A stretch of 64,000 bases of DNA from a virus: the IMG/VR virus record IMGVR_UViG_3300045988_108377, positions 1 through 64,000 of that record; one strand, given 5' to 3'. Below, one piece after another: positions 6,658 to 60,392 of this stretch. A program made the position numbers and the translations under genes. The notes under the pieces were generated by a model. That model was not told where the DNA came from. It was given only the letters and a program-made list of their open reading frames with translations, and searched no databases. The stretch's first letter is position 1, and each line of letters begins with the position of its first letter.

Positions 6658-7056
6658 TTAATTATACCTATAATTGATGTAGGCTGATTCCGAACCGAAT
6701 ATTCGTTCCGTCTCATTCATTCCGGAATCCCTTATCTCGTCAATGACGACACTTCTGCAGGGCGCACATTCCTTCTTGATTAACTTACTTATATTTTCAA
6801 ATCTATAAGAAAGGTCGTTCTGATCGTAATCGTAAACATTGACCTTTTCGCAATAATATTCATTGTTCTTTACACCTACGACTATCTCTATAATCTTTGT
6901 TGCCATTTCGTATGTGTAAATAAAGCTATAAGCATTCTCCTCAATGGCCATTTCGAATGCGCCTTTAGCTATATCATTGATTAATTCCCTTCTATTTACT
7001 TTATAATCTTCTATAATCTTGAATTTAAAAGTGAATGTTATATTTATTATTTGCAC
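6658..7056 (-). CDS. hypothetical protein (start uncertain)
   Basis: First ORF behind cassette A. The position that is ATG in all other cassettes is ATA here (7012-7014). The track start is a GTG inside the conserved GCAAATAATAA leader. The next in-frame ATG is 36 codons in. Confidence 0.45.
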   Translation of the reverse strand: MQIINITFTFKFKIIEDYKVNRRELINDIAKGAFEMAIEENAYSFIYTYEMATKIIEIVVGVKNNEYYCEKVNVYDYDQNDLSYRFENISKLIKKECAPCRSVVIDEIRDSGMNETERIFGSESAYINYRYN

Positions 7057-7122
7057 TACAAAGATACAAACAATTTGTCAAATATGCAAGTTTTTAGGTG
7101 TATTTCTTATCAAAAATACACA
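7015..7122 (-). promoter_or_regulatory. promoter-leader cassette, copy A
   Basis: Minus sense: ...TTTGATAAGAAATACACCTAAAAACTTGCATATTTGACAAATTGTTTGTATCTTTGTAGTGCAAATAATAAATATAACATTCACTTTTAAATTCAAGATTAT. The -7 box TATCTTTG is at 7059-7066. Near-identical to 10 other copies. Confidence 0.75.
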
Positions 7123-7255
7123 AAATATTTTCAAATAAGCAATTCATATACGTACTTTTGATAGGAATACCTTATTATATACAAAAAACATCTTTATCAG
7201 AAAATGTTTTTCTACATTTGCAGTATCATTTATTCACATAAAAAAACTAACAATT

Positions 7256-7420
7256 ATGACATCAGGGAAATTATTTAATGGTTGCTTGATAGTGCTGGGA
7301 ATATTCGTTGCCATCGTGTTTGGACTTGGCTACGCATTCTCTGGTAGCGAATCTTCCACTACAGAAGAACTCTTTCGTATGAATGCCAGGGTTCAGTTCA
7401 AAAAGACGGAACAATTATAG
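7256..7420 (+). CDS. small membrane protein (54 aa), divergent from the early genes
   Basis: Below the track cutoff: MTSGKLFNGCLIVLGIFVAIVFGLGYAFSGSESSTTEELFRMNARVQFKKTEQL. One TM helix. A plus-strand TACATTTG (-7 consensus) lies at 7213-7220. Confidence 0.35.
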   Translation: MTSGKLFNGCLIVLGIFVAIVFGLGYAFSGSESSTTEELFRMNARVQFKKTEQL

Positions 7421-7562
7421 TTGCTAACAAATACACTACTCGGTCATTTCAATTCCATAAAGGTACGATAAGAACGAAACTTACACATTTTACCCAAATG
7501 ATGGCGAGGTTTACAACAAGATATTGTCAGGCTTGTTACATCTTGACACAAACTAAAATTGC

Positions 7563-8297
7563 CTATTCTTCCGTTTCCTTGGCTATTCTTTCCTTGGCAA
7601 TCTTGAAAAACTTCTCGTTATTTTCGATACCGATGTACTTTCTGCCTAATCTATTGGCAGCTATTGCCGTTGTACCCGAACCTATGAAAGGGTCTATCAC
7701 CACTTCACCTTCCTTGCTTGAGAGGCTGATTATTCTATTGAAAATCTCCAAAGGCTTTTGGGTAGGGTGATACTTTGCTTTAAGATATGAACTTTTAATT
7801 ACCCGGCTATACATGGAGCTGTCTTCAAGTTTATTGAGGGCAGTTCCATTTTCATATATTCTCACAATGAACTCCACATTTTGAGCAAAGCGTTGCTTCG
7901 ATATGATGCATACCGGCTTTTCCCAAATCAATATGGCAAACTTGTATTTATGCGCCATCGCCCACTCGTAATAGTCTGCTATCTGTTCCTCCGAGCAAAA
8001 GATATATGCATTCATCTTCACCATGACACGAGGAACGAGGTCAAGCCATGCGTAGATGTCAGAACGTTGTAATCCATTCTTGATACGACACATTCCGCTA
8101 TTGTCTGTGTAATCGTATAGGGTAGACTTACACATATTATTCTTAACTTTCTTCGTTTCGCTATGAATGCCCTTTGTAAACCTATAAGGAGGGTCTGCAA
8201 TGAGTAAATGGCAGCAATAAGCTGGCAATTCGTCTAAAATCGCCTTGTTGTCTCCAAAAATGAGCTTGTTTTCTGTTATTTTATTGATGTACCTCAT
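7563..8297 (-). CDS. DNA amino-methyltransferase (N6-adenine or N4-cytosine), beta class
   Basis: 244 aa. Motif IV LLIADPPY lies N-terminal to motif I VIDPFIGSGTT, the beta-class order. DPPY favours m6A. Confidence 0.85.
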   Translation of the reverse strand: MRYINKITENKLIFGDNKAILDELPAYCCHLLIADPPYRFTKGIHSETKKVKNNMCKSTLYDYTDNSGMCRIKNGLQRSDIYAWLDLVPRVMVKMNAYIFCSEEQIADYYEWAMAHKYKFAILIWEKPVCIISKQRFAQNVEFIVRIYENGTALNKLEDSSMYSRVIKSSYLKAKYHPTQKPLEIFNRIISLSSKEGEVVIDPFIGSGTTAIAANRLGRKYIGIENNEKFFKIAKERIAKETEE

Positions 8298-8303
8298 GAT
8301 TTT

Positions 8304-8537
8304 CTACAATTTTACTTTGATAGCCATTCTTTTGATGATATAATACACTGCTCTTTCCTTTAATGCGTATTTTTCCATGAGAAAACTTACGATATAGCCT
8401 ACTTTCAGCTTCTGGGCCTTCATTTGCTTGTATTCCTCGTAAATTTCGATGTTTCTAACCTCTGCAGGGTCAATTTTATTGTCCACAAGGGCTTGCAAAA
8501 GGGTTCTGTTGGCTTTAATTAGCTCGAATTTTGTCAT
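8304..8537 (-). CDS. small putative DNA-binding regulator
   Basis: The track start at 8573 lies in the GCAAATAATAA leader. The real ATG is at 8535-8537 after ...AAATTCAAATT. The C-terminal VSFLMEKYALKERAVYYIIKR resembles an HTH. Confidence 0.5.
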   Translation of the reverse strand: MTKFELIKANRTLLQALVDNKIDPAEVRNIEIYEEYKQMKAQKLKVGYIVSFLMEKYALKERAVYYIIKRMAIKVKL

Positions 8538-8653
8538 AATTTGAATTTTTAAGTTGTTTTTTATTATTTGCATGTAAGAAAAGCGTATTTTTGTCTTTTC
8601 TCAGTGCAAAAATACGAAAATATCTCGATTTTATGCTGATTTCCGTCTAAATT

Positions 8654-18974: not shown

Positions 18975-19541
18975 TTACTTGCCTTTAGAATATATCTGAT
19001 AGAGCCTACGCTCAAACTCGTTCTTCTCGTTGTCGTTTCTCATACACTGATAAATACGTACCCATGCTATATTTCTGACCTCATTTTGGTTGGCTATATG
19101 CATTCTCTGTGCGTACCAATCCAAAACGCCAAACGACCCGAAGTTAAGAGACTCCACTCCTGCTGCTCGCTCCTCTCTTGAGTAAGAGGGCTTGATGGAA
19201 GAGAATATCTTGTTTATCCTCTTAACCTCTTCTGTCACGAAGTTGGAGAAACCAAACACATCGTTCACGTCTTCCGTGAGTAGCAAGTTCGGGTCAATCT
19301 TTAAAAGTATCTTGCAAGTTCCTTCAATTGGATTCTCTGAACTTGCTGCCGTCTGCATATCATCCAACTCCCCATACGTTAGCATACTTAGGTTATCTGG
19401 CACATCTTTACCGCATAGAACTTTTGGGCGAGGTTGCTTACGTAATCTTCCCAACAAGTCCTCTTGCTTTTCCTTGGTGCAGTAAGGGAATAGCTCGATA
19501 AACTTTCCGTATGTACATTGGTCTTTGTCTTTCTTCTTCAT
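18975..19541 (-). CDS. hypothetical protein downstream of TerL
   Basis: The track start at 19589 is the ATG inside an ATGCAAATAATAA leader motif. I prefer the ATG at 19539-19541 (MKKKDKDQCTYGKF...). At 188 aa it is too small for a portal. Confidence 0.5.
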   Translation of the reverse strand: MKKKDKDQCTYGKFIELFPYCTKEKQEDLLGRLRKQPRPKVLCGKDVPDNLSMLTYGELDDMQTAASSENPIEGTCKILLKIDPNLLLTEDVNDVFGFSNFVTEEVKRINKIFSSIKPSYSREERAAGVESLNFGSFGVLDWYAQRMHIANQNEVRNIAWVRIYQCMRNDNEKNEFERRLYQIYSKGK

Positions 19542-19610
19542 GATGTCAAAGTTACATAATTCTGAAAAGTGTTTTGTTATTATTTGCATATCTTTACTGC
19601 AACAGTGATT

Positions 19611-23526: not shown

Positions 23527-24002
23527 ACATCAAACATATTTAATTGTTTATAGTGAACTGGTGGTTTTATGCCGTTGATTGCACCAGCATTTATCATGTT
23601 GGCAAACCACCAGTTCCTACACGTATTAAACTCTTGCTTATTTGCTTGCGGCAATTTCCAATCGATATACTCGTTGGTTATATTGATTCTGCGAGCATTT
23701 TCTATTCTTAGAGTACAAAACTCATCGTCGATATTGATGTTGTGCCCCAATGCTGGAGCAAAGGCTACATGAAGGTTATGAGACCAAATCCAATCCTCAC
23801 ATACCCCACACAAATAGTAAAGTCTGGATTCTTCTAGTTTAAGCTCTCTGTTTGGGTTAAGTGGAGTTCCACCCCATATTCTTCTATCGAACTTACCAAT
23901 CAGACATTTTGTGCAATGCTGACTGAGGTCTATATCTCTGACGAGTTTTAACCAAAGGTACCTATAGTTCCTTTTTGGTTTGAAGTACTTAATTGTTACC
24001 AT
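23523..24002 (-). CDS. hypothetical Cys/His-containing protein
   Basis: 159 aa, the first gene behind cassette B. ATG at 24000-24002. Confidence 0.55.
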   Translation of the reverse strand: MVTIKYFKPKRNYRYLWLKLVRDIDLSQHCTKCLIGKFDRRIWGGTPLNPNRELKLEESRLYYLCGVCEDWIWSHNLHVAFAPALGHNINIDDEFCTLRIENARRINITNEYIDWKLPQANKQEFNTCRNWWFANMINAGAINGIKPPVHYKQLNMFDV

Positions 24003-24107
24003 AATTTCGATAATTTAAAGTAAATATTGCATATTATTTGCACAACAAAGATACTAAAAAATTATCAAATATGCAAACTTTTTGACAATTATTTTTATCA
24101 AAAAAGC
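24003..24107 (-). promoter_or_regulatory. promoter-leader cassette, copy B
   Basis: -7 box TATCTTTG at 24046-24053. GTGCAAATAATATGCAATATTTACTTTAAATTATCGAAATTAT precedes the ATG. The upstream TTTGCATATTTGATAAT block is shared with the other copies. Confidence 0.7.
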
Positions 24108-24108
24108 A

Positions 24109-27662: not shown

Positions 27663-28052
27663 TTATTTTATTGTTGCAACCTCAAATCCGAAATAGTCAA
27701 TCAAGGCATACAACACCTTTGCCGACATCTTCCTTTTCTCGTTTACTATTGTCGAAAGTGTGCTACCGCTCACGTTTGTTGTCTTGGCGATAGTTACCAT
27801 TTTCTCCTTGCAATCTTTAAGACATGCCTTCACTTTGTCCTCTATTAGATTGGGTGAGAAGGCTGAATCGTCTTTCTTCCAAGTTAGATTCAAGAGTTCC
27901 ATGACTTTCACGAGATTTTCTGTTGTCAAGTTGCGATTTCCTTTCAAAAATGCATTGAAGTTCTGAACGACCAATCCACATTCCTTACACACCATCGTCT
28001 GATTGACACCCCGATAGTGCATTCTTTCCTCTATAATTTCATTTATCTTCAT
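27663..28052 (-). CDS. tandem double XRE-type HTH regulator
   Basis: 129 aa with two HTH units: NQTMVCKECGLVVQNFNAFLKGNRNL...MELLNL and VTIAKTTNVSGSTLSTIVNEKRKM...IDYFGF. It is the first gene of the cmoA/ParB operon. Confidence 0.7.
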   Translation of the reverse strand: MKINEIIEERMHYRGVNQTMVCKECGLVVQNFNAFLKGNRNLTTENLVKVMELLNLTWKKDDSAFSPNLIEDKVKACLKDCKEKMVTIAKTTNVSGSTLSTIVNEKRKMSAKVLYALIDYFGFEVATIK

Positions 28053-28241
28053 AATTTCGTATTCAAGTGTTTGCCATTAATGACGGCACTATTTATTATT
28101 TGCTTTCTTGTTCGTTTTGCAGAAGTTTGCAATTATGTTGCAAAGATAATCAAAAATACAATTATATACAAGTGTTTGATAAGTATTTTTGCAATTAACC
28201 TCAAAAATCTTTCATTTATCGGTATTTTTTGACTATCTTTG
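28053..28241. promoter_or_regulatory. divergent promoter/operator region (variant cassette C plus a plus-strand promoter)
   Basis: Minus-strand -7 TATCTTTG at 28141-28148, overlapped by the palindrome TTTGCAATTATGTTGCAAA (28126-28144). Further TTTGCA half-sites at 28116, 28187 and 28238. Plus-strand -7 TATCTTTG at 28234-28241. A GCAAATAATAAAT leader motif lies at 28091-28103. Confidence 0.6.
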
Positions 28242-28246: not shown

Positions 28247-28372
28247 TTAAATATGAACTTTATTTAATTTTGTGTTCCGCCTAACGGCAGTTCATAATTT
28301 TGAATTTAAAGTGAAAATTTATTATTTGCATAAGAACGAGCTCGTCCGTGAGGATAAGCTCTTCTGTTTTTT
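28247..28372 (+). ncRNA. candidate ~125-nt anti-leader sRNA
   Basis: Bounded by a consensus plus-strand -7 box (28234-28241) and an intrinsic terminator (28333-28372). The longest ORF is 4 codons. Bases 28294-28330 (CATAATTTTGAATTTAAAGTGAAAATTTATTATTTGCA) are the antisense of the shared 5' leader, including its start codon. Confidence 0.4.
28333..28372 (+). terminator. intrinsic terminator (plus strand)
   Basis: Stem AGAA(C)GAGCT (28333-28342) / AGCTCTTCT (28357-28365), 9 bp with one bulge, followed by GTTTTTT (28366-28372). The minus-sense exit has no T run. Confidence 0.6.
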
Positions 28373-30795: not shown

Positions 30796-30800
30796 ATGAA

Positions 30801-36402: not shown

Positions 36403-36404
36403 TT

Positions 36405-37328: not shown

Positions 37329-37330
37329 AT

Positions 37331-42572: not shown

Positions 42573-42975
42573 TTTGTTGTTTTCTTTTCAAAGTATCTTT
42601 GTAACTTTCTAACACTTCCAAAAGTCTGTTTAGAGAGTAAGAGGCAAAGGACTTTTCCCATCCTTTTACGCTATAGTATTTGACGTTGTAACCAGATAGA
42701 CTTAACAACTCTTTGTTTGTCTTGTGCAGTTCTTCTGTCGCCTTTGTTCTGATGGTAAGGACTACGCAGAAAATTGCCGATAACAAATCGTTTGTCAACT
42801 TGTCTTCATCAAGTTTCAACGAACCGTTGTACGCATCTATCTTGTTGTTCCATGTTGTAATTCTCGTGATGGTATCGTTATTAACTTTGATAGGTTCCTT
42901 TGCTCCAAATACGAACTGCTGGTCTTTACCTACCAACTTAACTACGGCTTGCTCGTAATCATATTCCTTTTCCAT
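42556..42975 (-). CDS. hypothetical protein
   Basis: I prefer the ATG at 42973-42975 (MEKEYDYEQAVVKL...) directly behind cassette L. The track start at 43065 lies in the cassette. Confidence 0.55.
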   Translation of the reverse strand: MEKEYDYEQAVVKLVGKDQQFVFGAKEPIKVNNDTITRITTWNNKIDAYNGSLKLDEDKLTNDLLSAIFCVVLTIRTKATEELHKTNKELLSLSGYNVKYYSVKGWEKSFASYSLNRLLEVLESYKDTLKRKQQNEENK

Positions 42976-43084
42976 AATCTTTGTATTTTTAAAGTGAATG
43001 TTATGTTTATTATTTACATTACAAAGATACAAACAACTTATCAAATACGCAAATGTTTTGAGCAATTATTTTTGTAAATTTGCA
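42976..43084 (-). promoter_or_regulatory. promoter-leader cassette, copy L
   Basis: -7 box TATCTTTG at 43022-43029. Leader GTAAATAATAAACATAACATTCACTTTAAAAATACAAAGATT + ATG. It abuts the stop of 43085..43918. Confidence 0.75.
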
Positions 43085-43918
43085 TTATTTTTTCGTCACT
43101 TTAAACTTGTTTTCTAATCTTTCCACTCCCATTGTTTCCAACTCGCAGCTCTTAACTTCCTTGTCGAAATGGCCTAACCGTAAGGCATCAAGGCAATATT
43201 GGTTCCGGAAGCCATCATCTGACAATTTCTCGTTTATAGCTTTGTATGCTTGTTCTGATGCGTAGTTTCGTGTCGGGTGTAAATTGTTCTTCTTGTAATG
43301 AACCTTTGAGTCTGCAAAGGCATACATGGCACCTACAGCCACATTTAATGTCGCCTCCTTATAGCTTTTGCTAAAGTCTATATGATACTCGTCCTTGTAA
43401 ATCTGAATGTGTGCCTTGAATACCTCATCGTATAAGTTTATCATGGCTCTTGCCGTCTCTATCTGAGCTATAATGTCGCAGTCCTTTAAACCTTTTCGCT
43501 CATAGTAAAACTTAAATGTAAGCGTCAAGTCAAACAATAGTTTCTCCAGACCTTCGTATGCCTTGTTACATGAATCACTAACCAATCCTCTTGCCCTCGT
43601 CTCCATGTGTTTCGCAAGATAGTCATTGTATTTATCAAAATCTTTTTTGATGGCTTCCAACCATTTCTTGTTTTGAAACTTGATAAGGTTTCGCTCGTCG
43701 TACCAGTCGTATACCTTTAGAAACTCCTGTTCTGCAATATATCGGTAGACTAATACGATAGTAAAGAATAAGTCTCGGCAATTCTTCCTGGCAAACTCCT
43801 TTGTCTTCGGGTCAAGCAACTTTTTAATGTTCATGACCACTGTCTTTTCAATGTAATGCGGATTGCCTTTGTTAGTCTTATTTGCAAAAGCTTTACTAAT
43901 ATTTTCTTTCGTCTCCAT
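43085..43918 (-). CDS. hypothetical protein
   Basis: 277 aa, helical. No motif recognised. Confidence 0.6.
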   Translation of the reverse strand: METKENISKAFANKTNKGNPHYIEKTVVMNIKKLLDPKTKEFARKNCRDLFFTIVLVYRYIAEQEFLKVYDWYDERNLIKFQNKKWLEAIKKDFDKYNDYLAKHMETRARGLVSDSCNKAYEGLEKLLFDLTLTFKFYYERKGLKDCDIIAQIETARAMINLYDEVFKAHIQIYKDEYHIDFSKSYKEATLNVAVGAMYAFADSKVHYKKNNLHPTRNYASEQAYKAINEKLSDDGFRNQYCLDALRLGHFDKEVKSCELETMGVERLENKFKVTKK

Positions 43919-43932
43919 TTTGCTTGAATTAA

Positions 43933-44079
43933 TTATTCAATACCGTGATATGATTTTCTACTCCACATTCTTATCGCCGTCTCAAGTCTTGTGTCGTTAC
44001 CAGCAAGCCTGTCAATCCAGACGCGAGAGAGGCGATTGGCGGGGGTATGGGCGAGCTTCTTTGCTAATCGTGCTTTCAT
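43933..44079 (-). CDS. small basic protein (48 aa)
   Basis: Below the track cutoff. ATG at 44077-44079: MKARLAKKLAHTPANRLSRVWIDRLAGNDTRLETAIRMWSRKSYHGIE. Locally GC-rich. Confidence 0.4.
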   Translation of the reverse strand: MKARLAKKLAHTPANRLSRVWIDRLAGNDTRLETAIRMWSRKSYHGIE

Positions 44080-44083
44080 AAAG

Positions 44084-44473
44084 CTATTCGTCTTTTAAGT
44101 TCAACTTCTCCTGCCAAACTTGTTCATGGATATTGCCTATAATAACAGAATCGAAACAACGCAACGTTTCTCCTAATGATTTAACGCAATGAAGTTTTGC
44201 GCCATCCTCCTTCAGATAAAAGCCACCTGCGTCTTCATCCCATTCGACAACACCAACACACGGTCCGACATTCACCACGTCACCTTCATAAATTTCCTTG
44301 CCGTTCTTGTCTTTCAGCCCGGTATATTGCCCTACGGAATCTATATTTACACGAACCATAGCAAAATTCTTGTAGGCAATAAAGACTTTCCCATCACTAA
44401 ACTGCCTAAGGTCACCATTGTACCATTTATTGTTATCTAGTGACTTTCCACGAAATACTATCTTATGTTTCAT
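44084..44473 (-). CDS. YopX-family protein
   Basis: 129 aa. FRGKSLDNNKWYNG..., GQYTGLKDKNGKEIYEGDVV and IIGNIHEQ match the YopX pattern. Confidence 0.75.
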   Translation of the reverse strand: MKHKIVFRGKSLDNNKWYNGDLRQFSDGKVFIAYKNFAMVRVNIDSVGQYTGLKDKNGKEIYEGDVVNVGPCVGVVEWDEDAGGFYLKEDGAKLHCVKSLGETLRCFDSVIIGNIHEQVWQEKLNLKDE

Positions 44474-44508
44474 ACTAATCTAATGTCATAATCTATGCTT
44501 TATAATTC

Positions 44509-45159
44509 TTATTTATAGATGCGGATAAGACTAGGAATGCAGCAATCGTAATTTTTATATCCTGGTTCTACGTAGCTGACTTCGGGATTTTTATCACGCA
44601 TAGCATTTATTTCATCCAGGGAGTAAGGACCTACGCAGAAGCGGATGAAACCTATGTAAAGGAGAGAACCTTCGTTGTCGTAGCCAGCAAGACGGCCCAA
44701 AGAGGTTCCTTTCGCCTTACCTGCCGTAATCAGGACTTCACGACCTTGATAGAGAAGATAAATCTCCTTAACCGTCAGTCCGGAAAGATTCTCAAACACG
44801 GAATCAGCAGATGCATGCGTATTCTTCTGCTCCATCCTCTCCTCGATAGGTTCAACCTCCATTTTAACATGTAATTCAGATTCCTCACGCTCTCTCCTGC
44901 TTTTTAGAACGAAAAGCTTTGCCTTTCTCCAACTATCTGCCCAGCCAAGGAGCAAGAGGCCTACAAAGAAACCAGCCATCACTACGATGGTTGCCTCTAA
45001 GCAGCAATCGTATATCTCTTGCGATAGAACGCAGGGATGCGTATAGATATTCTTCAGCTTACCGAAGCCATAGATAAGGACAACGGCAAGGATGGGTACC
45101 AAAATCGCCAACAAGTTAACACCGATAACCTGGGCGTAATACTTCAATTTACTTTTCAT
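44509..45159 (-). CDS. membrane protein (two N-terminal TM segments)
   Basis: 216 aa. VNLLAILVPILAVVLIYGF and VVMAGFFVGLLLLGW, followed by a soluble C-terminal domain. Confidence 0.55.
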   Translation of the reverse strand: MKSKLKYYAQVIGVNLLAILVPILAVVLIYGFGKLKNIYTHPCVLSQEIYDCCLEATIVVMAGFFVGLLLLGWADSWRKAKLFVLKSRREREESELHVKMEVEPIEERMEQKNTHASADSVFENLSGLTVKEIYLLYQGREVLITAGKAKGTSLGRLAGYDNEGSLLYIGFIRFCVGPYSLDEINAMRDKNPEVSYVEPGYKNYDCCIPSLIRIYK

Positions 45160-45217
45160 AATCTTATTTTTTATCTTTTTGTTTTTCTGCCTAAATCTAA
45201 GTTCATAATTTTATTAT

Positions 45218-45328
45218 TTAAAATACGTCTTTAATATCGCACCCGGCTACTGCCTTATATTCTGCCTTGAGGAAAGCAATCTCATCTTTCAGACGTTTGA
45301 TTTCTGCGGTAGGCTGATGACGTTCCAT
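45218..45328 (-). CDS. small ORF (36 aa); coding-like frame continues upstream to the TAA of 45431..45949
   Basis: ATG at 45326-45328: MERHQPTAEIKRLKDEIAFLKAEYKAVAGCDIKDVF. The same frame is open and protein-like for 34 more codons back to 45430, in frame with the upstream gene's stop. It has no ATG/GTG/TTG start there. Confidence 0.3.
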   Translation of the reverse strand: MERHQPTAEIKRLKDEIAFLKAEYKAVAGCDIKDVF

Positions 45329-45430
45329 ATTCAGCTTCCAGTTGCGGTAGGCATAATAGTACTTATCACATAGCTTCAGCTCCTCATCGGTGTACTTTTG
45401 CTTATGCAGGCATGGCGCTCGTTTTACCTC

Positions 45431-45949
45431 TTATAGCTTACCATTCTCCGTAAGTATGATCAGTCCAGCATAATCAGGAAGGAGAGGAAGTAATTTCCCA
45501 CTAAGGTACCATGGTACGCAATAGTAGAAATAGTTCGGGCGGCGATGCTCTCTACGGAACACCTCCTGACTCTTGTAGTAGATATTCCAAGCCTTGCCAG
45601 CCTTCTCAATATGATAGTTAGGGTATGACTCATACTTCGACAAGGCTTTCTCGTCTATTTCTCTACGTACGAAAGTAAGAGGGTGCCACTCTCCTGTCTT
45701 CAGTAGTTCATGCTTCTGCCACTTGTGGGTGAAATCGTTCTTGAAATCGGCGAAGGAGATTTTGCATTCTATCTCATACCAATATCCGCTTCGGGTCTTG
45801 ATGAGCTGGTCGCTCTCCCAACCGAACACGTAAAGGTTTTCTACGATATACTTAGGGTTCGATTTCCAGCCGCGCAAATGCTGCTGAAGAAGCTGCTCTG
45901 TTATCTGTTCCTTTGTAAGAAGCGATGTTTGTTTACGCTTTATTCCCAT
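45431..45949 (-). CDS. PD-(D/E)XK nuclease superfamily protein (MmcB-like)
   Basis: 172 aa. ...VFGWESDQLI...YWYEIECKISFADF... gives a D...E.K catalytic pattern. Tentative family call. Confidence 0.5.
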   Translation of the reverse strand: MGIKRKQTSLLTKEQITEQLLQQHLRGWKSNPKYIVENLYVFGWESDQLIKTRSGYWYEIECKISFADFKNDFTHKWQKHELLKTGEWHPLTFVRREIDEKALSKYESYPNYHIEKAGKAWNIYYKSQEVFRREHRRPNYFYYCVPWYLSGKLLPLLPDYAGLIILTENGKL

Positions 45950-45987
45950 ATTATTTTTCCTTTCTCTTCTTGATGATGGTACCCTTT

Positions 45988-46170
45988 TCAGGGCTGTCGA
46001 TTGTACAGAAGGATTGCTCTGCCATGTTTCTGATAATATTCTTCACGCTCTTTCTTTTCGGTACAATTTAGATTTTTAAGAAAGACATCTGTACCTCTAA
46101 CCAAATCATGCAATTTTGTTCCTTGTGGCTTTCCTCTAAGGATAGCCGGAATTTCTGTTGTTTCATTCAT
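45988..46170 (-). CDS. small protein with KPQGTKL motif
   Basis: 60 aa, the first gene behind cassette M. IPAILRGKPQGTKLHDL resembles the N-terminus of 5165..6148. Confidence 0.5.
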   Translation of the reverse strand: MNETTEIPAILRGKPQGTKLHDLVRGTDVFLKNLNCTEKKEREEYYQKHGRAILLYNRQP

Positions 46171-46262
46171 AACTTGCTGAATTTAAGTGATTTATTATTA
46201 TTTGCACTGCACAAAGATAAGAAAAAGTTATCAAATACGCAAATTATTTTGCAATATTTTTA
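46171..46262 (-). promoter_or_regulatory. promoter-leader cassette, copy M (overlaps the 3' end of the upstream CDS)
   Basis: -7 box TATCTTTG at 46212-46219. It shares the subtype sequence GATAACTTTTTCTTATCTTTG with the switch-region copy at 56285-56320. Confidence 0.7.
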
Positions 46263-47023
46263 ATCGCATTTGATATTTTTCCTATAAAGCCATTTTTCTT
46301 AGTCTCCATAAGTTTCTTGATATATTGCAATCTGCCTTCATCGAAAGCTTTTTGTAAATCTTCTCCACTCATGGCCTTTTCCTTCATTTCGGATTTCTCC
46401 TTTTCTTCACGTTCCTTTCTGTCTACTTCCTCTTTGACGCAATAGTCATGGTCTCTATCTTTCAAAAATTCTTTGAATGCCACCAAAATCTTCTGAGGGT
46501 CTACAGAACCGTAGAAGATACCATATTGCCCTGCTCTAAGACGAGCACAGAACAGAATGAACTCTACCATCGTAAGTGTAGGAAACATGGTGAGTATCTG
46601 TTCGCCTACGGCTCTGAGCTGGTTAGGTGTGATTTTATTCTTGGCTCCCACAAAATCTGATACCACCAGCAAGTGCGCATTCATAAACGAGATTGCTGCT
46701 CCCTCGTTGATTGTTCCGTCAGAAGCATAAGTCGACGGATAAGCCTCATTTAAGATACAGAGTGTAGGTGACTTAATCAGCTCGCATTGGTCAACGGAAC
46801 GGCAAGCGCCACAGATAACATCCTGCAAATCTGTATTAAAGGAAGTCAAAAGGGTCGTAGCCTGGTAATTGTCTCTCAGGCTTTTGGCTTTCTGGCTTAC
46901 CTGCTTTGATCCATTGTTCTCGTTGCTCGTCAAGTTTCTTGACGTTAGCCATGATAGCTGCTCTCTGACGTTCGCTATCAAGTCTGTTTCTTTCTTGTTC
47001 TGTCGTGCAATTTGATTTTCCAT
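46244..47023 (-). CDS. hypothetical replication-module protein (start uncertain)
   Basis: 259 aa from the ATG at 47021-47023. Its first 62 codons overlap the 3' end of the initiator gene in another frame. Confidence 0.5.
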   Translation of the reverse strand: MENQIARQNKKETDLIANVREQLSWLTSRNLTSNENNGSKQVSQKAKSLRDNYQATTLLTSFNTDLQDVICGACRSVDQCELIKSPTLCILNEAYPSTYASDGTINEGAAISFMNAHLLVVSDFVGAKNKITPNQLRAVGEQILTMFPTLTMVEFILFCARLRAGQYGIFYGSVDPQKILVAFKEFLKDRDHDYCVKEEVDRKEREEKEKSEMKEKAMSGEDLQKAFDEGRLQYIKKLMETKKNGFIGKISNAIKNIAK

Positions 47024-54379: not shown

Positions 54380-55307
54380 ACTTCTTTGTATTTTTGTTGA
54401 ACTTCAAGCCAAGCTCCTTGCATCTGTCTGTGATGAGCGACTTCGCATGAGCGTTGGAATCCCATATCTGCTTCTTGTCTTTCATTGACAATACGTAAGA
54501 GTTTGCCTGCTCAGCATCGCTGATACAAGCCACCTCGCCCTCAATCTCTGAAATCAGCTCATCGTATTCCTTACGAGTGTTTGACTCTTGCTTCAAGTAG
54601 CTGTCGTAATTCTCAAAGATATTCGACATAAAATCATTATGGCCGATAATCTTGCCTTGGGCATCGATAATTACTGGAATCTCTTGCATAGGTGGCAAAT
54701 TGCAAGTATTCTTTGCGTAGAACTTTTCTTGTGGTGTCCATGAGATAGTTCTCTTGTTGCCAATAGCTTGCATGTAGCCTACCAAATCCAGCTCTTTGAT
54801 GAGGTCGCCTGCAGATGAACCACCAATCTCGGGACGAACAATGCGAATGTCTCCATCCTTTTCTTCACGCTCATGGGCAACGAAGATTACGTGTTTGCCC
54901 ATCATCGAAACTCGCTTTAAAAAGTTGATGAACATAATCTTTCTTGCTCCGAATCCCTGCAAGGTTAAAGAACCGTCACGCTTGCCAAGACGATTGTCTT
55001 GCTGAATGATGTATGTGCTCATGTAGTCAAGCATCTTTCCTGCTGTATCAATAACGATAGTCATGAAATCGTTTGATTGTGTTTCCAACTCTTGTAAGGC
55101 CTGTAACACCTCGTTCCAATTCTGTACTTGAAGCGTTGGACATTGAAATGCTCCATTTACTCGTTGGATGCCTCCGTCAAAGTCAAAAAGTACCGGATTC
55201 GGGGTGCTAAGTGCAAGGGTGCTCTTGCCCAAGCCAGGTTGACCATACACCAATGCCTTAATTGTGGAGTTATAAGCCAACTCCGAAGGCTTCTTAAACA
55301 TGCTCAT
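54366..55307 (-). CDS. RecA-fold ATPase (AAA_24 / Sak4-like)
   Basis: 313 aa. Walker A VYGQPGLGKST and Walker B TIVIDTAG. Behind a leader-only cassette copy (GCAAATAATAAATTTCAAAACGACAATTAAATTACAAGATT). Confidence 0.6.
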   Translation of the reverse strand: MSMFKKPSELAYNSTIKALVYGQPGLGKSTLALSTPNPVLFDFDGGIQRVNGAFQCPTLQVQNWNEVLQALQELETQSNDFMTIVIDTAGKMLDYMSTYIIQQDNRLGKRDGSLTLQGFGARKIMFINFLKRVSMMGKHVIFVAHEREEKDGDIRIVRPEIGGSSAGDLIKELDLVGYMQAIGNKRTISWTPQEKFYAKNTCNLPPMQEIPVIIDAQGKIIGHNDFMSNIFENYDSYLKQESNTRKEYDELISEIEGEVACISDAEQANSYVLSMKDKKQIWDSNAHAKSLITDRCKELGLKFNKNTKKYEAA

Positions 55308-55430
55308 AATCTTGTAATTTAATTGTCGTTTTGAAATTTATTATTTGCAATCTTTTTTGGCGAATAAAATCGCCCTTAAATCTCGTAAGAGATAGCTTTC
55401 CGATGGCTCAAACTTGACGTTTTTGTCGTT

Positions 55431-55939: not shown

Positions 55940-56143
55940 TTAGCTGACCCGAAGAATAGTGATGCTACAATCCTTCTTATTAACTATCTTTTTGACATCC
56001 CATTTTTCACGCATCAATTCTCTTTTCAGACGGCTGATAACCGTTGTAATGGAGCTGTAGCGTTCCATCGGGAATGTCAGTCGGTCTCCGATTCTCAATT
56101 CTCGGAGTTCCGCTGTGATTGGTTTTTTGATAAGCTCTTCCAT
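55940..56143 (-). CDS. first early gene of the switch region (Cro-like role possible)
   Basis: 67 aa, transcribed divergently from the repressor from the cassette-type promoter at 56297-56304, through a ~150-nt leader. Confidence 0.45.
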   Translation of the reverse strand: MEELIKKPITAELRELRIGDRLTFPMERYSSITTVISRLKRELMREKWDVKKIVNKKDCSITILRVS

Positions 56144-56426
56144 TTCTCTATTTTTTGTTAAACTTTGCCCCCTAAAGGGGGCCGACTTGTAATAATCTAG
56201 CCTAAATCATCTTTTTGTTACTTTTAGGTACGTTAAAAATTTGCATAAGAACGAATAATTTTGTAATTTTGTTGTTGTTGTTATTATTTGACATTGCAAA
56301 GATAAGAAAAAGTTATCATTTGTGCAAGTTTTTAAGGAGAAAATTTTATATTTTTGATAAAAAAGTTGTAAAACGGAACGCTGATAAGTGGTTCTTGTTG
56401 GTATTCACATTATTATATATAGAATT
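56144..56426. promoter_or_regulatory. divergent genetic-switch region (variant cassette P and the repressor promoter)
   Basis: Minus-strand -7 TATCTTTG at 56297-56304 with leader CAAATAATAACAACAACAAC... and the GC hairpin GCCCCC-TAAA-GGGGGC (56167-56182). Plus-strand -7 TATTTTTG at 56349-56356, followed by a leader ending AGAATT + ATG at 56427. Confidence 0.6.
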
Positions 56427-56888
56427 ATGAACGAAGGAACTAATAAGTATAACGTGCGTGAGATAATCGCTAACGTGCTGCAAGCGGTTGGAATGAACGG
56501 ACCTGGATTTGCCAAAGCCATAGGTCTTCCATATACCGTGGTTTATAATTTGCAAAGTGGTAGGACGAAGAAGTTCAGACCAGCTATAGCTAACCCAATG
56601 GTCAAGGCTTTCCCACGACTTAATTTGGAATACCTATATACTGGTGACGGTGAAGTACTAAAAGATGAGGTTCCTTCTGAAACAGAACGTGTCTCTAAAT
56701 TTGCCGGTTCATTGGATAATGTTGTGGAACTTCAAAAGAAGATTTTCGATAAACTAGATGAACTTAGCAAAAAGGAAAAAGAACTGAACGAAATGGAAAG
56801 AAGACTCAACTTAAAAGAACTTGAACTAATAAAACGAGAAAGTGAGTGTCAATTACGGGAAAGTAAGCTTGGTATTCAAAAAGTATAG
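56427..56888 (+). CDS. CI-like repressor (N-terminal HTH, C-terminal coiled coil)
   Basis: I prefer the ATG at 56427. MNEGTNKYNVREIIANVLQAVGMNGPGFAKAIGLPYTVVYNLQSGRTKK...LNLEYLYTGDGEV. The LEYLxTGxG signature is typical of phage repressors. On the plus strand next to the integrase. Confidence 0.65.
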   Translation: MNEGTNKYNVREIIANVLQAVGMNGPGFAKAIGLPYTVVYNLQSGRTKKFRPAIANPMVKAFPRLNLEYLYTGDGEVLKDEVPSETERVSKFAGSLDNVVELQKKIFDKLDELSKKEKELNEMERRLNLKELELIKRESECQLRESKLGIQKV

Positions 56889-56934
56889 TCTGATATATCA
56901 CATTGAGTTTTTTATTGCCTTTTACGAACCGATT

Positions 56935-57160
56935 TGTTGTCGGAGTAAATCTTAAAGATGAGTAACTAACAGAAAACAAGAGTATTATATATAGATGAAG
57001 AAGAATACGATAGTTCACTTTGGTTTTATTTCAAAAAGCTTTGTGGTTAGTTAAAACTTTGATATATAACTTGTTATATAAATATGGGTCATTCAAAAGT
57101 AGATACGAAACTGTTGTCGGAATACTTGCGAATGGCTCGTAACAAACCGAAAAGTTGTCG
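56935..57160. promoter_or_regulatory. direct repeats and a palindrome upstream of int (candidate arm sites/attP or int regulatory region)
   Basis: TGTTGTCGGAGTA (56935-56947), TGTTGTCGGAATA (57112-57124) and GTTGTCG (57154-57160). Perfect palindrome TATATAAC-TT-GTTATATA (57063-57080). Confidence 0.3.
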
Positions 57161-57163
57161 CAA

Positions 57164-58393
57164 ATGAATCTGAGAGTTGTCATACTTCCTGCTAAGGTCT
57201 TGACGGACGGAAGTCATAAAGTTAGAATTGCAATTTCACACAGAGGTAACACAAGATACTTTGTTACCAGATTTACCGTGCCATCGGAGAAAAACTTGGT
57301 TAATGGCAATGTCGTTGGAATACCGAATGCCGCATACATCAACAACCAAATCAGACTGAAACTAAATAAAATCTATAATGCCTTCGACTCCCTGGAGGAA
57401 TCTGATTATTATACGTGTTCTCAGTTGGTAACTATGATTGAGGAAAAGATTTCCGGCACCAAACCAATGACGCTTCATCAGCTTGGAGTGGAATATATCA
57501 AAGTGAGGCGTTCTGTGGTAGCTGATGGTACAGTCTATATATACGAGCGAGGAATGGCAGAAATTGACTCGTTCTTTGGCACAGACTTTATCCTTCCTAA
57601 ACTTAAGGTTACTGATGTAAGTGCTTTCAAGGAATACTTGTCGAAAAAGCTTAATCCAACGACAACCAACTTAAGATTGCGTGTTCTAAACATGATTGTT
57701 ACCTATGCTGTTAGGCACAATTATGTCAAGTATGATGTATCTCCGTTTACCGATGTGCCATTGCCTCACGGAAACGTTAGAAACTGCGCAATATCAATCG
57801 AACAATTACGTGTTGTAAGAGATATGGAGTTCTCAAATTCTCGTCTTGATGTTTGCCTTTCTTTTGTTAGAGACATCTTTATGCTTTCGTTCTATCTGTG
57901 TGGTATGAACTTAGCGGATATTCTCTCTATGGATTTACGTAAAGACTCTGTTTCGTTTGTCAGACAGAAGACTAAGAACAGAAAAACTGACGGGGTTAAG
58001 ACTGAATTTACGATTCAGCCCGAGGCGAGAAAAATCCTTGATAGATTACTTGACAAAGACGGAAATATTGTATTCAAAGGAAAGAAAATGAGATACGACC
58101 CTATATCATGTTTGTTCTCCCGTAACTTTTCTGAGATTGCAGTAAGATGCGGAATTGAAACTCAATTCATATTCTATTCGGCCCGCAAGACTTTTGCACA
58201 AATCGCAAATGAGCTTATGGTAAAAGACTCCATCATAGAATATTGTATAGGTGACACTGTTACTTCTAGTAAAAAGATAATTGGCTACTATATTTCTGTT
58301 AACCAACGTATGGCAGACAAGGCAATACGAAAAATTTTTGATGCCGTTGCCTCTGACAAAAGTATAGAAGAACTTGTTGAGGATGCCATATAA
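57164..58393 (+). CDS. int: tyrosine recombinase/integrase (Bacteroides phage type)
   Basis: I prefer the ATG at 57164, since the track start at 57155 is TTG. It has an N-terminal arm-binding-like domain (MNLRVVILPAKVLTDGSHKVRIAISHRGNTRYF) and a SAM-like core (LHQLGVEYIK...). The C-terminal catalytic region includes ARKTFAQ and a terminal GYY. Confidence 0.8.
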   Translation: MNLRVVILPAKVLTDGSHKVRIAISHRGNTRYFVTRFTVPSEKNLVNGNVVGIPNAAYINNQIRLKLNKIYNAFDSLEESDYYTCSQLVTMIEEKISGTKPMTLHQLGVEYIKVRRSVVADGTVYIYERGMAEIDSFFGTDFILPKLKVTDVSAFKEYLSKKLNPTTTNLRLRVLNMIVTYAVRHNYVKYDVSPFTDVPLPHGNVRNCAISIEQLRVVRDMEFSNSRLDVCLSFVRDIFMLSFYLCGMNLADILSMDLRKDSVSFVRQKTKNRKTDGVKTEFTIQPEARKILDRLLDKDGNIVFKGKKMRYDPISCLFSRNFSEIAVRCGIETQFIFYSARKTFAQIANELMVKDSIIEYCIGDTVTSSKKIIGYYISVNQRMADKAIRKIFDAVASDKSIEELVEDAI

Positions 58394-58419: not shown

Positions 58420-58644
58420 TTATTTCTCAATTTCAAATAGATATTGGGTATCGCCACCATCAAGAGTGAGGATAACCGAAGGCTTGCCGAGCATTGGCTG
58501 CTTATGAAAACCATACAAGTACCAATGATTCCGTTTCAACTTACCTTCTATCACATTCAGATTCTTTATAGGAGCCTCAATATAATCTTTGTCTTGTCGA
58601 ATATCCAATCGGTGAATCTACATTAATACGTCAAATGCTTTCAT
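58420..58644 (-). pseudogene. small ORF interrupted by an in-frame TAG (possible pseudogene)
   Basis: ATG at 58642-58644, 15 nt after the radC stop, then 7 codons, then TAG at 58618-58620. The same frame continues for 66 codons, which includes track ORF 58420..58608 with its TTG start. Confidence 0.3.
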
Positions 58645-58659
58645 TATTTATTTTTTGTA

Positions 58660-59343
58660 TTAAAGTTTTCCTTTGTCATGATATGAATAATAGGTATTTA
58701 CCTTACTACTGATGATAACGTGATCCGAAAAGAAAAGGTTCATTACTTGACAAGCCTTTTGTATCTTCATAGTCAGTATATCGTCATTCTTGCTGGGCGT
58801 AGTGTTACAGCTTGGATGGTTGTGAACGAGTGCTATAATGGTAGCGTTACACATTATAGCCTCCTTGCATATCAGTCTTATATCTACAGTAGTTTCTGTA
58901 TTGCCTCCAACAGAAATGCGTACTCTTTTGATTAGTTTGAAATTTTGGTCCATACATAAAACCCATGATTCTTCGTGGTCCAAGTCAAGGGTAAACGGAC
59001 GCATATAGTTGTATATAAATAAAGAACTTCCTAAGTCTGTAATATCTTCCGCTTCCTCTTTCATCAGCCTTCTTCCTATTTCAAAGGCAGCGAGCAGAGC
59101 TGCAGCCTTCTTTTCGCCAATACCTTTTACCTTTACAAGTTCATCAAATGTTTTCTTTTTCGCCAATTTGCGTAAGCTATGACTACCATCGAATAAATCA
59201 CGGACAGGTTGGTTTGCCTCATTCATAATATCAATGCCGAGAACGGCTGCTATCAAATTCTCGTTGCTTACGTATTCCGTTCCATATCGCTCTATCATGG
59301 TTGCGGTAGTATCATACCAACACTTCTTGCTATTGTCTCTCAT
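58660..59343 (-). CDS. radC: RadC-like JAB/MPN domain protein
   Basis: 227 aa with an HhH-like KVKGIGEKKAAALLAAFEIGRR and the JAB motif HNHPSCNTTPSKNDDILT. Confidence 0.85.
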   Translation of the reverse strand: MRDNSKKCWYDTTATMIERYGTEYVSNENLIAAVLGIDIMNEANQPVRDLFDGSHSLRKLAKKKTFDELVKVKGIGEKKAAALLAAFEIGRRLMKEEAEDITDLGSSLFIYNYMRPFTLDLDHEESWVLCMDQNFKLIKRVRISVGGNTETTVDIRLICKEAIMCNATIIALVHNHPSCNTTPSKNDDILTMKIQKACQVMNLFFSDHVIISSKVNTYYSYHDKGKL

Positions 59344-59348
59344 GGTTT

Positions 59349-59786
59349 CTATTTAGATGTTTCAATATTGCAACCTTCTTGATAATATCTCAAGATTCTT
59401 TCCATACACTTGTTAATAAACTCTGCTTGTACTCTCATCCATTCTGTAATGGTGAATGTGTGACCAATAACCTTTGTTATTTCCTGGTCTAACGTTGGAT
59501 TCCAACAATCTTCGTGTTTGTAGCATTCCTCAGCAAGAAACTTTGCCTTAGTGGCTATATCATTAACACTTTCGGTTAAATCTTCTGTTATCCCATAAAC
59601 TTCCCAAAGATTTCTCATTTCACTAAAAGAAGTTCGAAGTTTCAAGAAAGGAGTTTCTAAGTCGTTATTTCTTAGCCAACAACTCATCTTGTCATAGCCT
59701 GTACATAATCTTTTGTAAGACGTTATATTGCACTCGATTATAAAATCATTGATTCTATCAAAAAACATTTGCTTTGTAGCTTCCAT
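59349..59786 (-). CDS. hypothetical protein
   Basis: 145 aa. No motif recognised. Confidence 0.55.
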   Translation of the reverse strand: MEATKQMFFDRINDFIIECNITSYKRLCTGYDKMSCWLRNNDLETPFLKLRTSFSEMRNLWEVYGITEDLTESVNDIATKAKFLAEECYKHEDCWNPTLDQEITKVIGHTFTITEWMRVQAEFINKCMERILRYYQEGCNIETSK

Positions 59787-59853
59787 AACTAAGAAATGTG
59801 TTTAATAATTTTTTGTTTTTCCTTTTTGTTTAGAAAGGGAGATTTCTCCCTAT

Positions 59854-60273
59854 CTATTTGTTGTACTTATTCATTCCCTCAATCAAATAGCTTAGTTCAT
59901 CATCCGATAACTCTAGCTTTGCATCAAACTTAGTGTTGATGATAAACTTCTTATCGAATTGGTTCTCCAATGTCTTATAGATATCGTCTACGCACATTTC
60001 ATTCTCAACAATAAGCTTCTTTCCGAACTCTTCCATTTCAATCTTATGGGTAGCGTTCAACTTCTCCATCTCTGCTTTATGAGCAGCTTCCATTTCAGAA
60101 ACCTGCTTTTTCAAAGCCTGTATTTGGGAATTGAATTGGCAAGCCATCTCTATAGGAAAATCATTCTTGATATTCTCACACATCTGGTCGATGTCGTGAT
60201 TGTTGAAGAACTCACTGAAGTACGTGTCACCTTTCAATGACTGCAAAGTCTTAATTTCTGTTTGCTTATCCAT
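59854..60273 (-). CDS. hypothetical coiled-coil protein
   Basis: 139 aa, the first gene behind cassette O. Confidence 0.55.
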   Translation of the reverse strand: MDKQTEIKTLQSLKGDTYFSEFFNNHDIDQMCENIKNDFPIEMACQFNSQIQALKKQVSEMEAAHKAEMEKLNATHKIEMEEFGKKLIVENEMCVDDIYKTLENQFDKKFIINTKFDAKLELSDDELSYLIEGMNKYNK

Positions 60274-60392
60274 AATTTTGAATGTTTAAGATGAATATTA
60301 TTTGTTTATTATTTACACTACAAAGGTATGTATTTTTCATCAAATACGCAAGTTAATAACAGATTATTTTTATCAGAAACGAAAGATTTTTT
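60274..60392 (-). promoter_or_regulatory. promoter-leader cassette, copy O
   Basis: -7 box TACCTTTG at 60321-60328. The leader GTAAATAATAAACAAATAATATTCATCTTAAACATTCAAAATT + ATG is the same subtype as copy E. Confidence 0.75.

Follow-up and report, generated by a model that had tools for sequence, protein, structure and literature searches.

The 64,000-nucleotide (nt) stretch of viral DNA analysed here (IMG/VR record IMGVR_UViG_3300045988_108377, positions 1 to 64,000; the window) carries 11 copies of a repeated unit, all of them on the minus strand and each terminating at the start codon of a gene. The interpretation that we favour, with a probability of about 0.6, is that these repeats are complete expression cassettes, which use the primary RNA polymerase and the ribosome of the host, and which also serve as linkers for recombination. 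As a kind of element they are already familiar, being the counterpart in a temperate phage of Bacteroidota of the promoter cassettes of T4-like phages. The DNA that carries them is a temperate, siphovirus-like phage or prophage of Prevotella/Bacteroidales.

A preliminary description of this DNA, made from the letters alone, had listed the 11 copies, and every one of them was found on the minus strand at its start codon by a profile built from the copies themselves (nhmmer E-values from 1.2e-27 to 6.1e-18). At the same positions, a repeat finder run on the window returned a family of direct copies with 10-12 members of 70-118 nt. The core pattern TTGCRTATTTGAYRA-N8-TANCTTTGT was matched 11 times with 0 mismatches in the window and 0 times across 100 dinucleotide-preserving shuffles, and the motif GYAAATAATAA was seen 18 times against 0.19 expected, with 17 of the 18 occurrences on the minus strand. 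The copies had been called near-identical, which was an overstatement, as their pairwise identity ranges from 66 to 91% over the unit; the length of about 110 base pairs (bp) given for it was roughly right, the conserved unit being slightly longer (about 120-125 nt). Each copy runs in the direction of the genes, its end coinciding exactly with the start codon, and 8 of the 11 are clustered within a 16-kilobase (kb) region of small genes without Pfam matches.

When the copies are cut at the -33 element, the cassette resolves into three units of 33-34 bp. The first of these, site A (CTTTCATTTTTGATAAAAA...), is A/T-rich and lies upstream, as a repeat of the -33 region at a distance of about 33 bp from the -33 element. 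Site B reads (C/T)TTGC(A/G)TATTTGAT(A/G)A, followed by a variable stretch of 8 nt and by TA(T/A/C)CTTTG, and site C, (N)TG(C/T)AAATAATAAA..., runs into the leader. An internal triple repeat of a TTGCAnATnnGATAAA-like 17-mer, with the same phasing over sites A, B and C, is present in each cassette. Site A almost exactly duplicates site C in one clade of relatives (loci L039, L044, L058, L068, L073, L074, L094 and others).

The preliminary description had assigned the -33 and -7 boxes to the sigma-A factor of the host, and this assignment held in all the cassettes. The -7 element TA[T/A/C]CTTTG is present in 11 of 11, and the -33 element reads TTTG in six copies and CTTG in five, always with a 20-nt spacer and preceded by AAAA. 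Both features of a Bacteroidota sigma-A promoter, a TAnnTTTG at -7 and a TTTG at -33 located 19-21 nt upstream, can thus be recognised, and they match the motifs obtained by differential RNA sequencing (dRNA-seq) in Segatella copri, where a TAnnTTT-type box lies at -7 and AAAnnTTTGG at -33. A scan for sigma-70 promoters gave 52 against an expectation of 50 and was uninformative, as this consensus is not the one used by the host. About 5 nt past the -7 box, the invariant GYAAATAATAA lies at the predicted start of transcription, which we place at the G or the A of GYAAAT.

Given this predicted start, the leaders would be 35-43 nt long. They are composed of 50% A, 33% T, 12% C and 5% G, and 10 of the 11 are free of internal AUG codons. 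An A is found at -14, -13 and -12 in 82, 91 and 100% of the cassettes, at -6 and -5 in 73 and 100%, and at -3 in 91%, while no G is present from -20 to -8 in any of the 11 leaders, which also have no Shine-Dalgarno-like core. A structured RNA leader (riboswitch, attenuator or Rfam family) was considered and rejected, since the minimum free energies are 0 to -1.5 kcal/mol, RNAalifold predicted 0 base pairs on the leaders, and a scan of the window against Rfam gave 0 matches.

In Flavobacterium johnsoniae, A at -3, -6, -12 and -13, together with low structure near the start codon, raises translation (Baez et al. 2019, PMC6847099). The conserved blocks of the leader that lie close to the ATG coincide with these determinants of Shine-Dalgarno-independent initiation in Bacteroidia (PMC6847099), and the leader also shares with Bacteroidia initiation regions the scarcity of structure and of additional AUG codons near the start codon. 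As these determinants are ordinary ones in Bacteroidia, most of the extra conservation needs no special regulator. Whereas the initiation signal of the host genes is a statistical tendency, the cassette is a near-fixed sequence common to many genes. The preliminary description had taken conservation up to the start codon as a sign of a post-transcriptional or regulator-binding target; its observation is sound, as the leader does run at a fixed length to the ATG, whereas a dedicated regulator is not required to account for it and RNA structure was not found. The fixed length extends to the whole family: in a set of 119 unique copies, gathered by means of the promoter core alone, the distance from CTTTGT to the first ATG opening a reading frame shows a sharp peak at 43-45 nt.

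A comparable case is offered by the start-associated sequences (SAS) and extended SAS (ESAS) of Cluster K mycobacteriophages (PMC3203893), where a conserved motif of a single orientation also lies just upstream of the start codons of many non-structural genes of different families, and for which, as for the cassette leader, a role in translation initiation is so far a proposal. The SAS, however, measures 13 bp and has a Shine-Dalgarno core, of which no equivalent was seen in the 11 leaders, and only 3-7 bp separate it from the start codon. The conserved stretch of the cassette is longer (about 40 nt), has no Shine-Dalgarno sequence and in most cases is joined to a promoter.

Related loci were gathered with the promoter core as bait. 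The core was present in 78 IMG/VR stretches, many of them with several copies, and in 35 genome stretches, including clusters on the chromosome of Prevotella lacticifex JCM 34664, in which a prophage has the same cassettes (loci L079, L087 and L091); further clusters were found on contigs of metagenome-assembled genomes of rumen and gut Bacteroidales and of Prevotella. The fetched loci gave 223 cassette hits in total. Over long stretches, the identity of several IMG/VR contigs to the window is 85-92%. A close relative among isolated phages was looked for and rejected, as no GenBank phage record covers more than 1% of the 30-47 kb stretch, and the relatives are all uncultured IMG/VR contigs or prophages.

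Beyond these relatives, 106 cassette hits were located in 55 loci (417 kb) that have no nucleotide similarity of at least 200 nt to the window, and 53 of these copies are unique and full-length. In them, GCAAATAAGATAA, located at the start site, shows the same invariance as the -33 and -7 boxes, and (C)ACTT(A/C)AAA and A(G/C)ATTATG are also conserved. In distant relatives with flanks 68-77% identical, the cassettes are 83-85% identical. Between orthologues of close relatives, differences concentrate in the 8-nt variable stretch of the spacer, in the linker between sites A and B and in the middle of the leader. Therefore, the unit is a mosaic of constrained and free blocks and is not uniformly conserved. 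Such position-specific conservation, with invariant and free blocks, in 53 unique copies from phages without gene-level nucleotide similarity makes it very improbable that the repeats are non-functional, recently spread or selfish DNA (duplicated or miniature mobile) alike by recent descent only: some paralogous pairs are indeed 87-91% identical and truncated relics exist (e.g. 28293-28329), but every copy is co-oriented with the genes and stops at a start codon, and the invariant blocks coincide with known determinants of promoters and of initiation.

The promoter core is also present outside phages. Its exact form, with the spacer GCATATTTGATAA, heads host genes such as mnmA and those for ribosomal protein L25, queH and outer-membrane or secreted proteins in Paludibacteraceae, Parabacteroides and other Bacteroidales genomes (loci L105, L107, L110, L090, L106, L082 and L083), and it is commoner there than a rough estimate of chance. 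This suggests either an extended promoter consensus of Bacteroidales or the capture of phage promoters by host genes. The host leaders downstream of CTTTGT are unrelated to that of the cassette, and a copying of the whole cassette from host promoters was rejected, as only the promoter core is common to host genes. The start-site motif was absent from about 90 kb of host-context DNA, a small sample, compared with 2.8 copies per 10 kb in phage-context loci. The Lak megaphages of Prevotella, which are unrelated to the window, carry TATCTTTGTAATGTAAATAATAAACATA...AAAGATTATG, nearly the -7 box and leader of the window with a different -33 region (loci L115 and L116; Prevotella phage Lak-B1, about 424.2 kb and 191.0 kb). 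The promoter part was also seen in a cattle-associated microvirus (locus L117; Microviridae MG945266).

The proposal that the cassettes act as recombination joints was corroborated by two clean indels bounded by cassettes and by genes replaced downstream of cassettes in relatives. In the first indel, a relative (L065, UViG 3300045988_151849) has a single cassette where the window has two around a 3.1-kb module of six genes; this cassette is a hybrid, with an upstream half like cassette 46170 and a downstream half like cassette 42975 (cassettes are named here by the position of their start codon). In the second, one relative (L018, UViG 3300045988_131339) has one cassette where three others (L005, L015 and L035) have two around a segment of 1,365 nt, which corresponds to the module of the window between cassettes 32002 and 30677; the flanks of L018 are 94-95% identical to those of the three. 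One-sided events were also observed: in relatives, unrelated sequence replaces the genes directly downstream of cassettes 30677 and 32002, and an extra or different gene is found downstream of cassette 7014. At cassette 24002, six relatives have an additional gene of 150 amino acids (aa) that separates the cassette from the packaging genes. An initial reading of this difference as a deletion flanked by two cassettes was rejected, as the relatives have one cassette plus the extra gene, so that the event has a cassette at one of its borders only.

On a wider scale, about 2% of the window is cassette sequence, and 33 of the 147 alignment ends that are internal lie in it; as the loci used for these ends are centred on cassettes and many are related to each other, individual events were counted instead. 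Some copies resemble a paralogue more than they do their orthologues. One such pair is formed by cassettes 30677 and 60273, with an identity of 91% to each other and of 78-82% to orthologues. Another is formed by cassettes 32002 and 37215, with 87% to each other and 81-82% to orthologues, and these two share a deletion in the leader that the orthologues lack. This pattern suggests that gene conversion may occasionally take place among the copies.

In the reading that we favour, a host sigma-A promoter formed by site B and the -7 box would start transcription at site C, and the A residues of the leader at -3, -5/-6 and -12 to -14 would raise Shine-Dalgarno-independent initiation. The cassettes would head at least 11 transcription units, in the accessory, replication-proximal, packaging and distal blocks, and about half of them would be insulated from upstream transcription by a terminator-like hairpin. 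Because the cassettes share 110-125 bp in a single orientation, homologous recombination among them would be expected to delete, insert and exchange the blocks that they bracket, and to homogenise the copies in part. Selection for strong signals of transcription and translation would, together with this recombination, keep the copies alike.

Several points weigh against this explanation. Orthologous cassettes of close relatives are 76-90% identical and the flanking genes 77-91%, so that a better conservation of cassettes than of genes, the comparison on which the preliminary description had staked itself, is true only for distant relatives and false for close ones. The core served as bait, so the family-wide conservation of site B is in part a product of how the loci were collected. 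Promoter activity is itself a prediction from the sequence. As the phage is temperate, a lysogen must somehow silence at least 11 consensus promoters, and the model gives no means for it. Finally, the start-site motif is invariant in distant phages to the same degree as the -33 and -7 boxes, one clade also has it at about -65, and elsewhere it stands by itself after hairpins, in every case on the same strand, a pattern that the needs of promoter or ribosome do not obviously call for.

The distribution of this motif was followed across the loci with its C-type 13-mer. It lies at +35/+36 from site B in 99 cases, at -31 from site B in one clade in 49, and isolated in 26, with 174 copies on the cassette strand and 0 on the opposite one. 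The isolated copies are mostly 14-50 nt upstream of start codons, and several are 5-8 nt past a GC hairpin; in the window they are found at 8571, 19587, 28103, 28329, 37039 and 55348. As a motif upstream of the promoter cannot act as a leader, and a motif without a promoter cannot act in initiation, two readings follow in which GYAAATAA[T/G]A[T]AA would be a dedicated signal of the phage: an operator similar to the stoperators of mycobacteriophages, or a signal for loading or processing that depends on the 5' end and would serve translation in a host unable to use Shine-Dalgarno pairing. We regard a dedicated signal of one kind or the other as a tentative proposal, with odds clearly against it. 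Such a signal may be common to Prevotella phages as unlike as this siphovirus-like family and the Lak megaphages.

The operator version, which we hold to be unlikely, takes the blocks dispensable for the polymerase as sites for a phage regulator that would silence the cassette promoters in the lysogen. The site would be an asymmetric stretch of 13-17 nt (TTGCAnATnnGATAAA / GYAAATAA[T/G]A[T]AA), located at about -65, over the -33 element and spacer, at +1 and in isolation, and the isolated sites could block read-through; candidates for the regulator are the CI-like protein of 153 aa encoded at 56427-56888 and the ParB/KorB-like protein encoded at 32179-33801. This would be compatible with the roles as promoter and as recombination joint. 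It is consistent with the three sites phased 33-34 bp apart, with the fixed offsets and strict strandedness of the 13-mer, with its presence in phage-context DNA and its absence from the host-context sample, with an information content equal to that of the -33 and -7 boxes in distant phages, and with a temperate phage that encodes a putative repressor. However, the binding of a regulator is purely hypothetical, the C-type copies at -65 are largely those of one clade and may represent few independent events, site C in the clade of the window itself (GYAAATAATAAA) has drifted from site B, and the site B sequence is also found at host promoters, where the phage regulator is absent. Moreover, a role in the leader or in translation fits equally well the isolated copies, given their position before start codons.

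The precedent for asymmetric sites of one orientation spread over a genome is provided by the stoperators of Cluster A mycobacteriophages (L5, TipsytheTRex; PMC9283540), which are likewise short motifs in many copies in a temperate genome, oriented with respect to transcription and located at the early promoter and in short intergenic spaces. In the window, 17 of 18 motifs are on the minus strand, the ratio among the loci is 174:0, and the isolated copies are intergenic. The likeness has its limits, in that binding by the immunity repressor, which blocks initiation and elongation, is proven for stoperators and putative for the motif of the window, most copies of which are part of a promoter, whereas stoperators are downstream roadblocks. 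In addition, the putative repressor of the window is of the CI type (phrog_8), whereas that of the stoperators is a helix-turn-helix (HTH) protein with a stoperator domain.

The other version, in which GCAAAUAA... at the 5' end of the mRNA is the functional element, seems to us improbable. Such an element might load ribosomal protein bS1 or the 30S subunit, stabilise the 5' end, be processed so that the same 5' end is formed anew behind hairpins, or recruit an antitermination factor with which transcription would get past the hairpins. The strict strand bias of the motif, its fixed position relative to the -7 box, the unstructured and A-rich leaders, the leader-only copies that lie upstream of start codons, inside operons and 5-8 nt after hairpins, and the very similar -7 box plus leader of the unrelated Lak megaphages all agree with a signal in the RNA. 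Against it, the copies at about -65 precede the promoter, so that only read-through would bring them into RNA, the isolated copies stand anywhere from 14 to 50 nt before the ATG, and no gene for a NusG/UpxY-like or other antiterminator was identified among the proteins scanned.

Returning to the expression cassettes, their nearest known parallel is the promoter-early stem-loop (PeSL) cassettes of T4-like myoviruses (Arbiol et al. 2010, PMC2839356; Comeau et al. 2014, PMC4122927). Both combine a strong promoter for the host sigma factor, here by sequence fit, and an AT-rich upstream part with a translation start region in an intergenic unit of about 100 bp, both are repeated many times in regions of small genes without known homologues, and in both the relatives gain, lose or replace the bracketed genes, leaving one chimeric cassette. 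They differ in their promoter, which is a sigma-70 -35/-10 in PeSL and a Bacteroidota -33/-7 without a Shine-Dalgarno sequence in the cassettes. In PeSL the stem-loop is integral, whereas the hairpin of the cassettes lies outside the unit, is unconserved and accompanies 5 of the 11 copies (36% across the family). Furthermore, PeSL belong to lytic T4-like myoviruses with a hyperplastic context, and no T4-like core genes were found in the window, which is that of a temperate siphovirus-like phage where cassettes also head the packaging block, beyond the early genes. Excised mini-circles formed in the course of infection are a further trait of PeSL. The preliminary view of a PeSL-like array is thus apt for the behaviour, namely the shuffling bounded by cassettes, and not for membership, since the hairpin is neither constant nor conserved; the cassettes are an analogue of PeSL and not a member.

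A second parallel comes from the Bacteroides fragilis phage B124-14, which has 4-5 copies of about 110 nt and seven of the core, all co-oriented with the genes. Their layout is like that of the cassettes, with a hairpin and T-run, -33/-7 boxes and a conserved A-rich leader of about 45 nt ending in ATTATG, although the leader sequence is different (CAGTGTCAAAAGGAAACAA...), lacks the GYAAATAA motif and is present in fewer copies than in the window. The annotations of the B124-14 record include neither an integrase nor a repressor. According to the toolkit literature, a promoter derived from this phage (P_BfP1E6) is the standard strong constitutive 'phage promoter' in Bacteroides.

If the cassettes work in this way, the shuffling of genes through cassettes, known until now from lytic T4-like phages that infect Proteobacteria and cyanobacteria, would extend to temperate phages of gut and rumen Bacteroidota, the hosts of which have a different promoter grammar and no Shine-Dalgarno sequences. 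For Prevotella, a difficult genus for genetic work, they would also provide a promoter and leader already shaped by natural selection and ready for use in expression, as the B124-14 promoter does for Bacteroides. In metagenomes, they would allow this phage family and its cargo of accessory genes to be found cheaply from the sequence. Should the start-site motif truly be an operator or a translation signal of the 5' end, it would give a handle on the silencing of temperate Bacteroidota phages and on how ribosomes blind to Shine-Dalgarno sequences choose their mRNAs; in the operator case, one repressor would silence a dozen consensus promoters in the lysogen.

Regarding the surroundings of the cassettes, the five hairpins indicated in the preliminary description are all real, and four of them have a T-rich tail, although they precede 5 of the 11 full copies and not most of them. 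They lie outside the repeated unit and have a different sequence each time, and cassettes 24002, 42975 and 46170 begin inside the upstream gene or at its stop codon, without a hairpin. Across the family, a strong hairpin (-15 kcal/mol or lower in 40 nt, at most 80 nt upstream of site A) was found upstream of 36% of 194 cassettes and in 6% of random control windows. Hairpins are thus enriched yet optional, and their sequence is unconserved. A scan for terminators over 28-47.5 kb was not enriched overall (15 found, 12.6 expected) and recovered the one at 36414-36435. Upstream of cassette 35134, a segment of 131 nt (35254-35371) that includes a hairpin at 35306-35338 and a possible Cys-rich open reading frame (ORF) of 31 codons (MSACGYHRWYCEHHQKEVDRNEGCEDWQEES) is missing from five relatives.

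Both variants noted previously, at 28053-28200 and 56144-56365, exist, and the second includes a partial copy that was also matched by the 11-copy profile. Leader-only copies with GCAAATAATAA were confirmed before the genes starting at 8537, 19541, 37006 and 55307; for a fifth, at 45159, the upstream sequence is only loosely similar. All these features are collected in Table 1. The first cassette has the start position ATA that had been reported (7014-7012), in an open frame with the next in-frame ATG at 6951; its gene may have a rare start codon, may begin at that ATG, 63 nt further on, or may have been damaged recently.

Table 1. Cassettes, variants, leader-only copies, hairpins and associated gene blocks of the window
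Feature	Coordinates	Strand	Remarks
Cassette 1	7012..7123	-	nhmmer E 1.2e-23; core pattern at 7058-7089; heads the last small-gene block past the tape-measure region
Cassette 2	24000..24119	-	nhmmer E 5.8e-21; begins right at the stop codon of ParB-like gene 24109-25485; upstream hairpin absent
Cassette 3	30675..30797	-	subtype with spacer GATGAAAAATACC; 91% identical to cassette 11
Cassette 4	32000..32119	-	leader variant AACAATAATACTTTAAACTTTC, in common with cassette 8
Cassette 5	33799..33920	-	heads 540-aa ParB/KorB-like gene 32179-33801
Cassette 6	35132..35253	-	profile match and core pattern
Cassette 7	36282..36406	-	top match to the family profile, nhmmer E 1.2e-27
Cassette 8	37213..37330	-	profile match and core pattern
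Cassette 9	42973..43095	-	downstream border of the 3.1-kb module that UViG 3300045988_151849 lacks; -7 box and leader Lak-like
Cassette 10	46168..46287	-	most divergent copy, nhmmer E 6.1e-18; upstream border of the 3.1-kb module
Cassette 11	60271..60394	-	repeat-finder, profile and core-pattern match
Variant	28050..28200	-	TATCTTTG box; GCAAATAATAA (28093-28103) about 35 nt downstream; small hairpin; ATG 28052
Variant	56141..56368	-	promoter part 56273-56348 (E 2.6e-7), then leader of about 130 nt with GC hairpin 56167-56183, to ATG 56143
Leader-only copy	8535..8571	-	GCAAATAATAA, 23 nt, then ATG 8537
Leader-only copy	19539..19587	-	canonical ATG directly followed by TAA (start-stop mini-ORF); gene start 19541, 13 nt further on
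Leader-only relic	28293..28329	-	adjoins hairpin 28338-28361; then ATG, three codons and stop; kept in relatives
Leader-only copy	37004..37039	-	within the operon of cassette 8; recognisable promoter not found; kept in five relatives
Leader-only copy	55305..55348	-	after hairpin 55359-55375; heads the replication block (AAA_24 gene)
Hairpin	30809..30840	-	terminator-like, upstream of cassette 3; tail ATTTTCTG
Hairpin	32123..32150	-	GC-rich, upstream of cassette 4; without T-run
Hairpin	36414..36435	-	intrinsic-terminator-like, upstream of cassette 7; with TTTTTCTT
Hairpin	37337..37368	-	terminator-like, upstream of cassette 8; with TTTCTTAT
Hairpin	60401..60432	-	terminator-like, upstream of cassette 11; with TTTCTTAT
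Accessory module	43096..46167	-	six genes between cassettes 10 and 9; the relative without it has one hybrid cassette
Lysogeny genes	56427..58393	+	153-aa regulator (phrog_8) and tyrosine integrase (Arm-DNA-bind_5, SAM_5 and Phage_integrase domains)

Nearly all the genes of the window are on the minus strand. Those recognised include a tape-measure protein (9619-13926), the large and small terminase subunits, two helicases, a DnaD-like initiator, an AAA_24 protein, a dUTPase, a DNA methyltransferase, a RadC-like protein and two ParB-like proteins, one of them with ParB HTH and KorB-like domains. Cassette 2 heads the packaging block, made of an ORF of 159 aa, the small terminase, a helicase and the large terminase. 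A vRNAP_dom match for gene 31700-32002 was disregarded (E 0.0019, 19 bits, with a cut-off of 27 bits).

On the plus strand, the gene of the tyrosine integrase (57164-58393) lies beside that of the 153-aa regulator, a putative repressor whose match to phrog_8 is weak. The region 55900-58400, in which the minus-strand variant cassette, with its hairpin-containing leader, is divergent from these two genes, looks like a lysogeny switch. Because of this location, the variant is probably the early lytic promoter of the switch. A gene for a regulator of 77 aa (55690-55923) lies just downstream on the lytic side.

The virion block from the large terminase to the tape-measure protein (9619-19589) is unusually short and includes an ORF of 899 aa (13929-16628). 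The searches run on the block found no PHROG match for this ORF and recognised no portal or major capsid protein.

The DnaD-like gene (46836-48032) contains seven same-strand copies of TGAGGTGTC at 47509-47697 (+), which are found nowhere else in the window. They lie within a tandem duplication of 99 nt (78 nt at 99% identity), and the protein repeats ETPQRTPQRT... The copies look like an iteron array and, by analogy with lambda O, may mark a replication origin inside the initiator gene.

Close to the beginning of the window, gene 358-999 (-) encodes a product of 213 aa without a family match, which has near its N-terminus a low-complexity stretch rich in Gly, Asp and Tyr (GDGDGDGYGDSDSDGYGYG...), corresponding to a 12-nt periodic repeat at 799-966.

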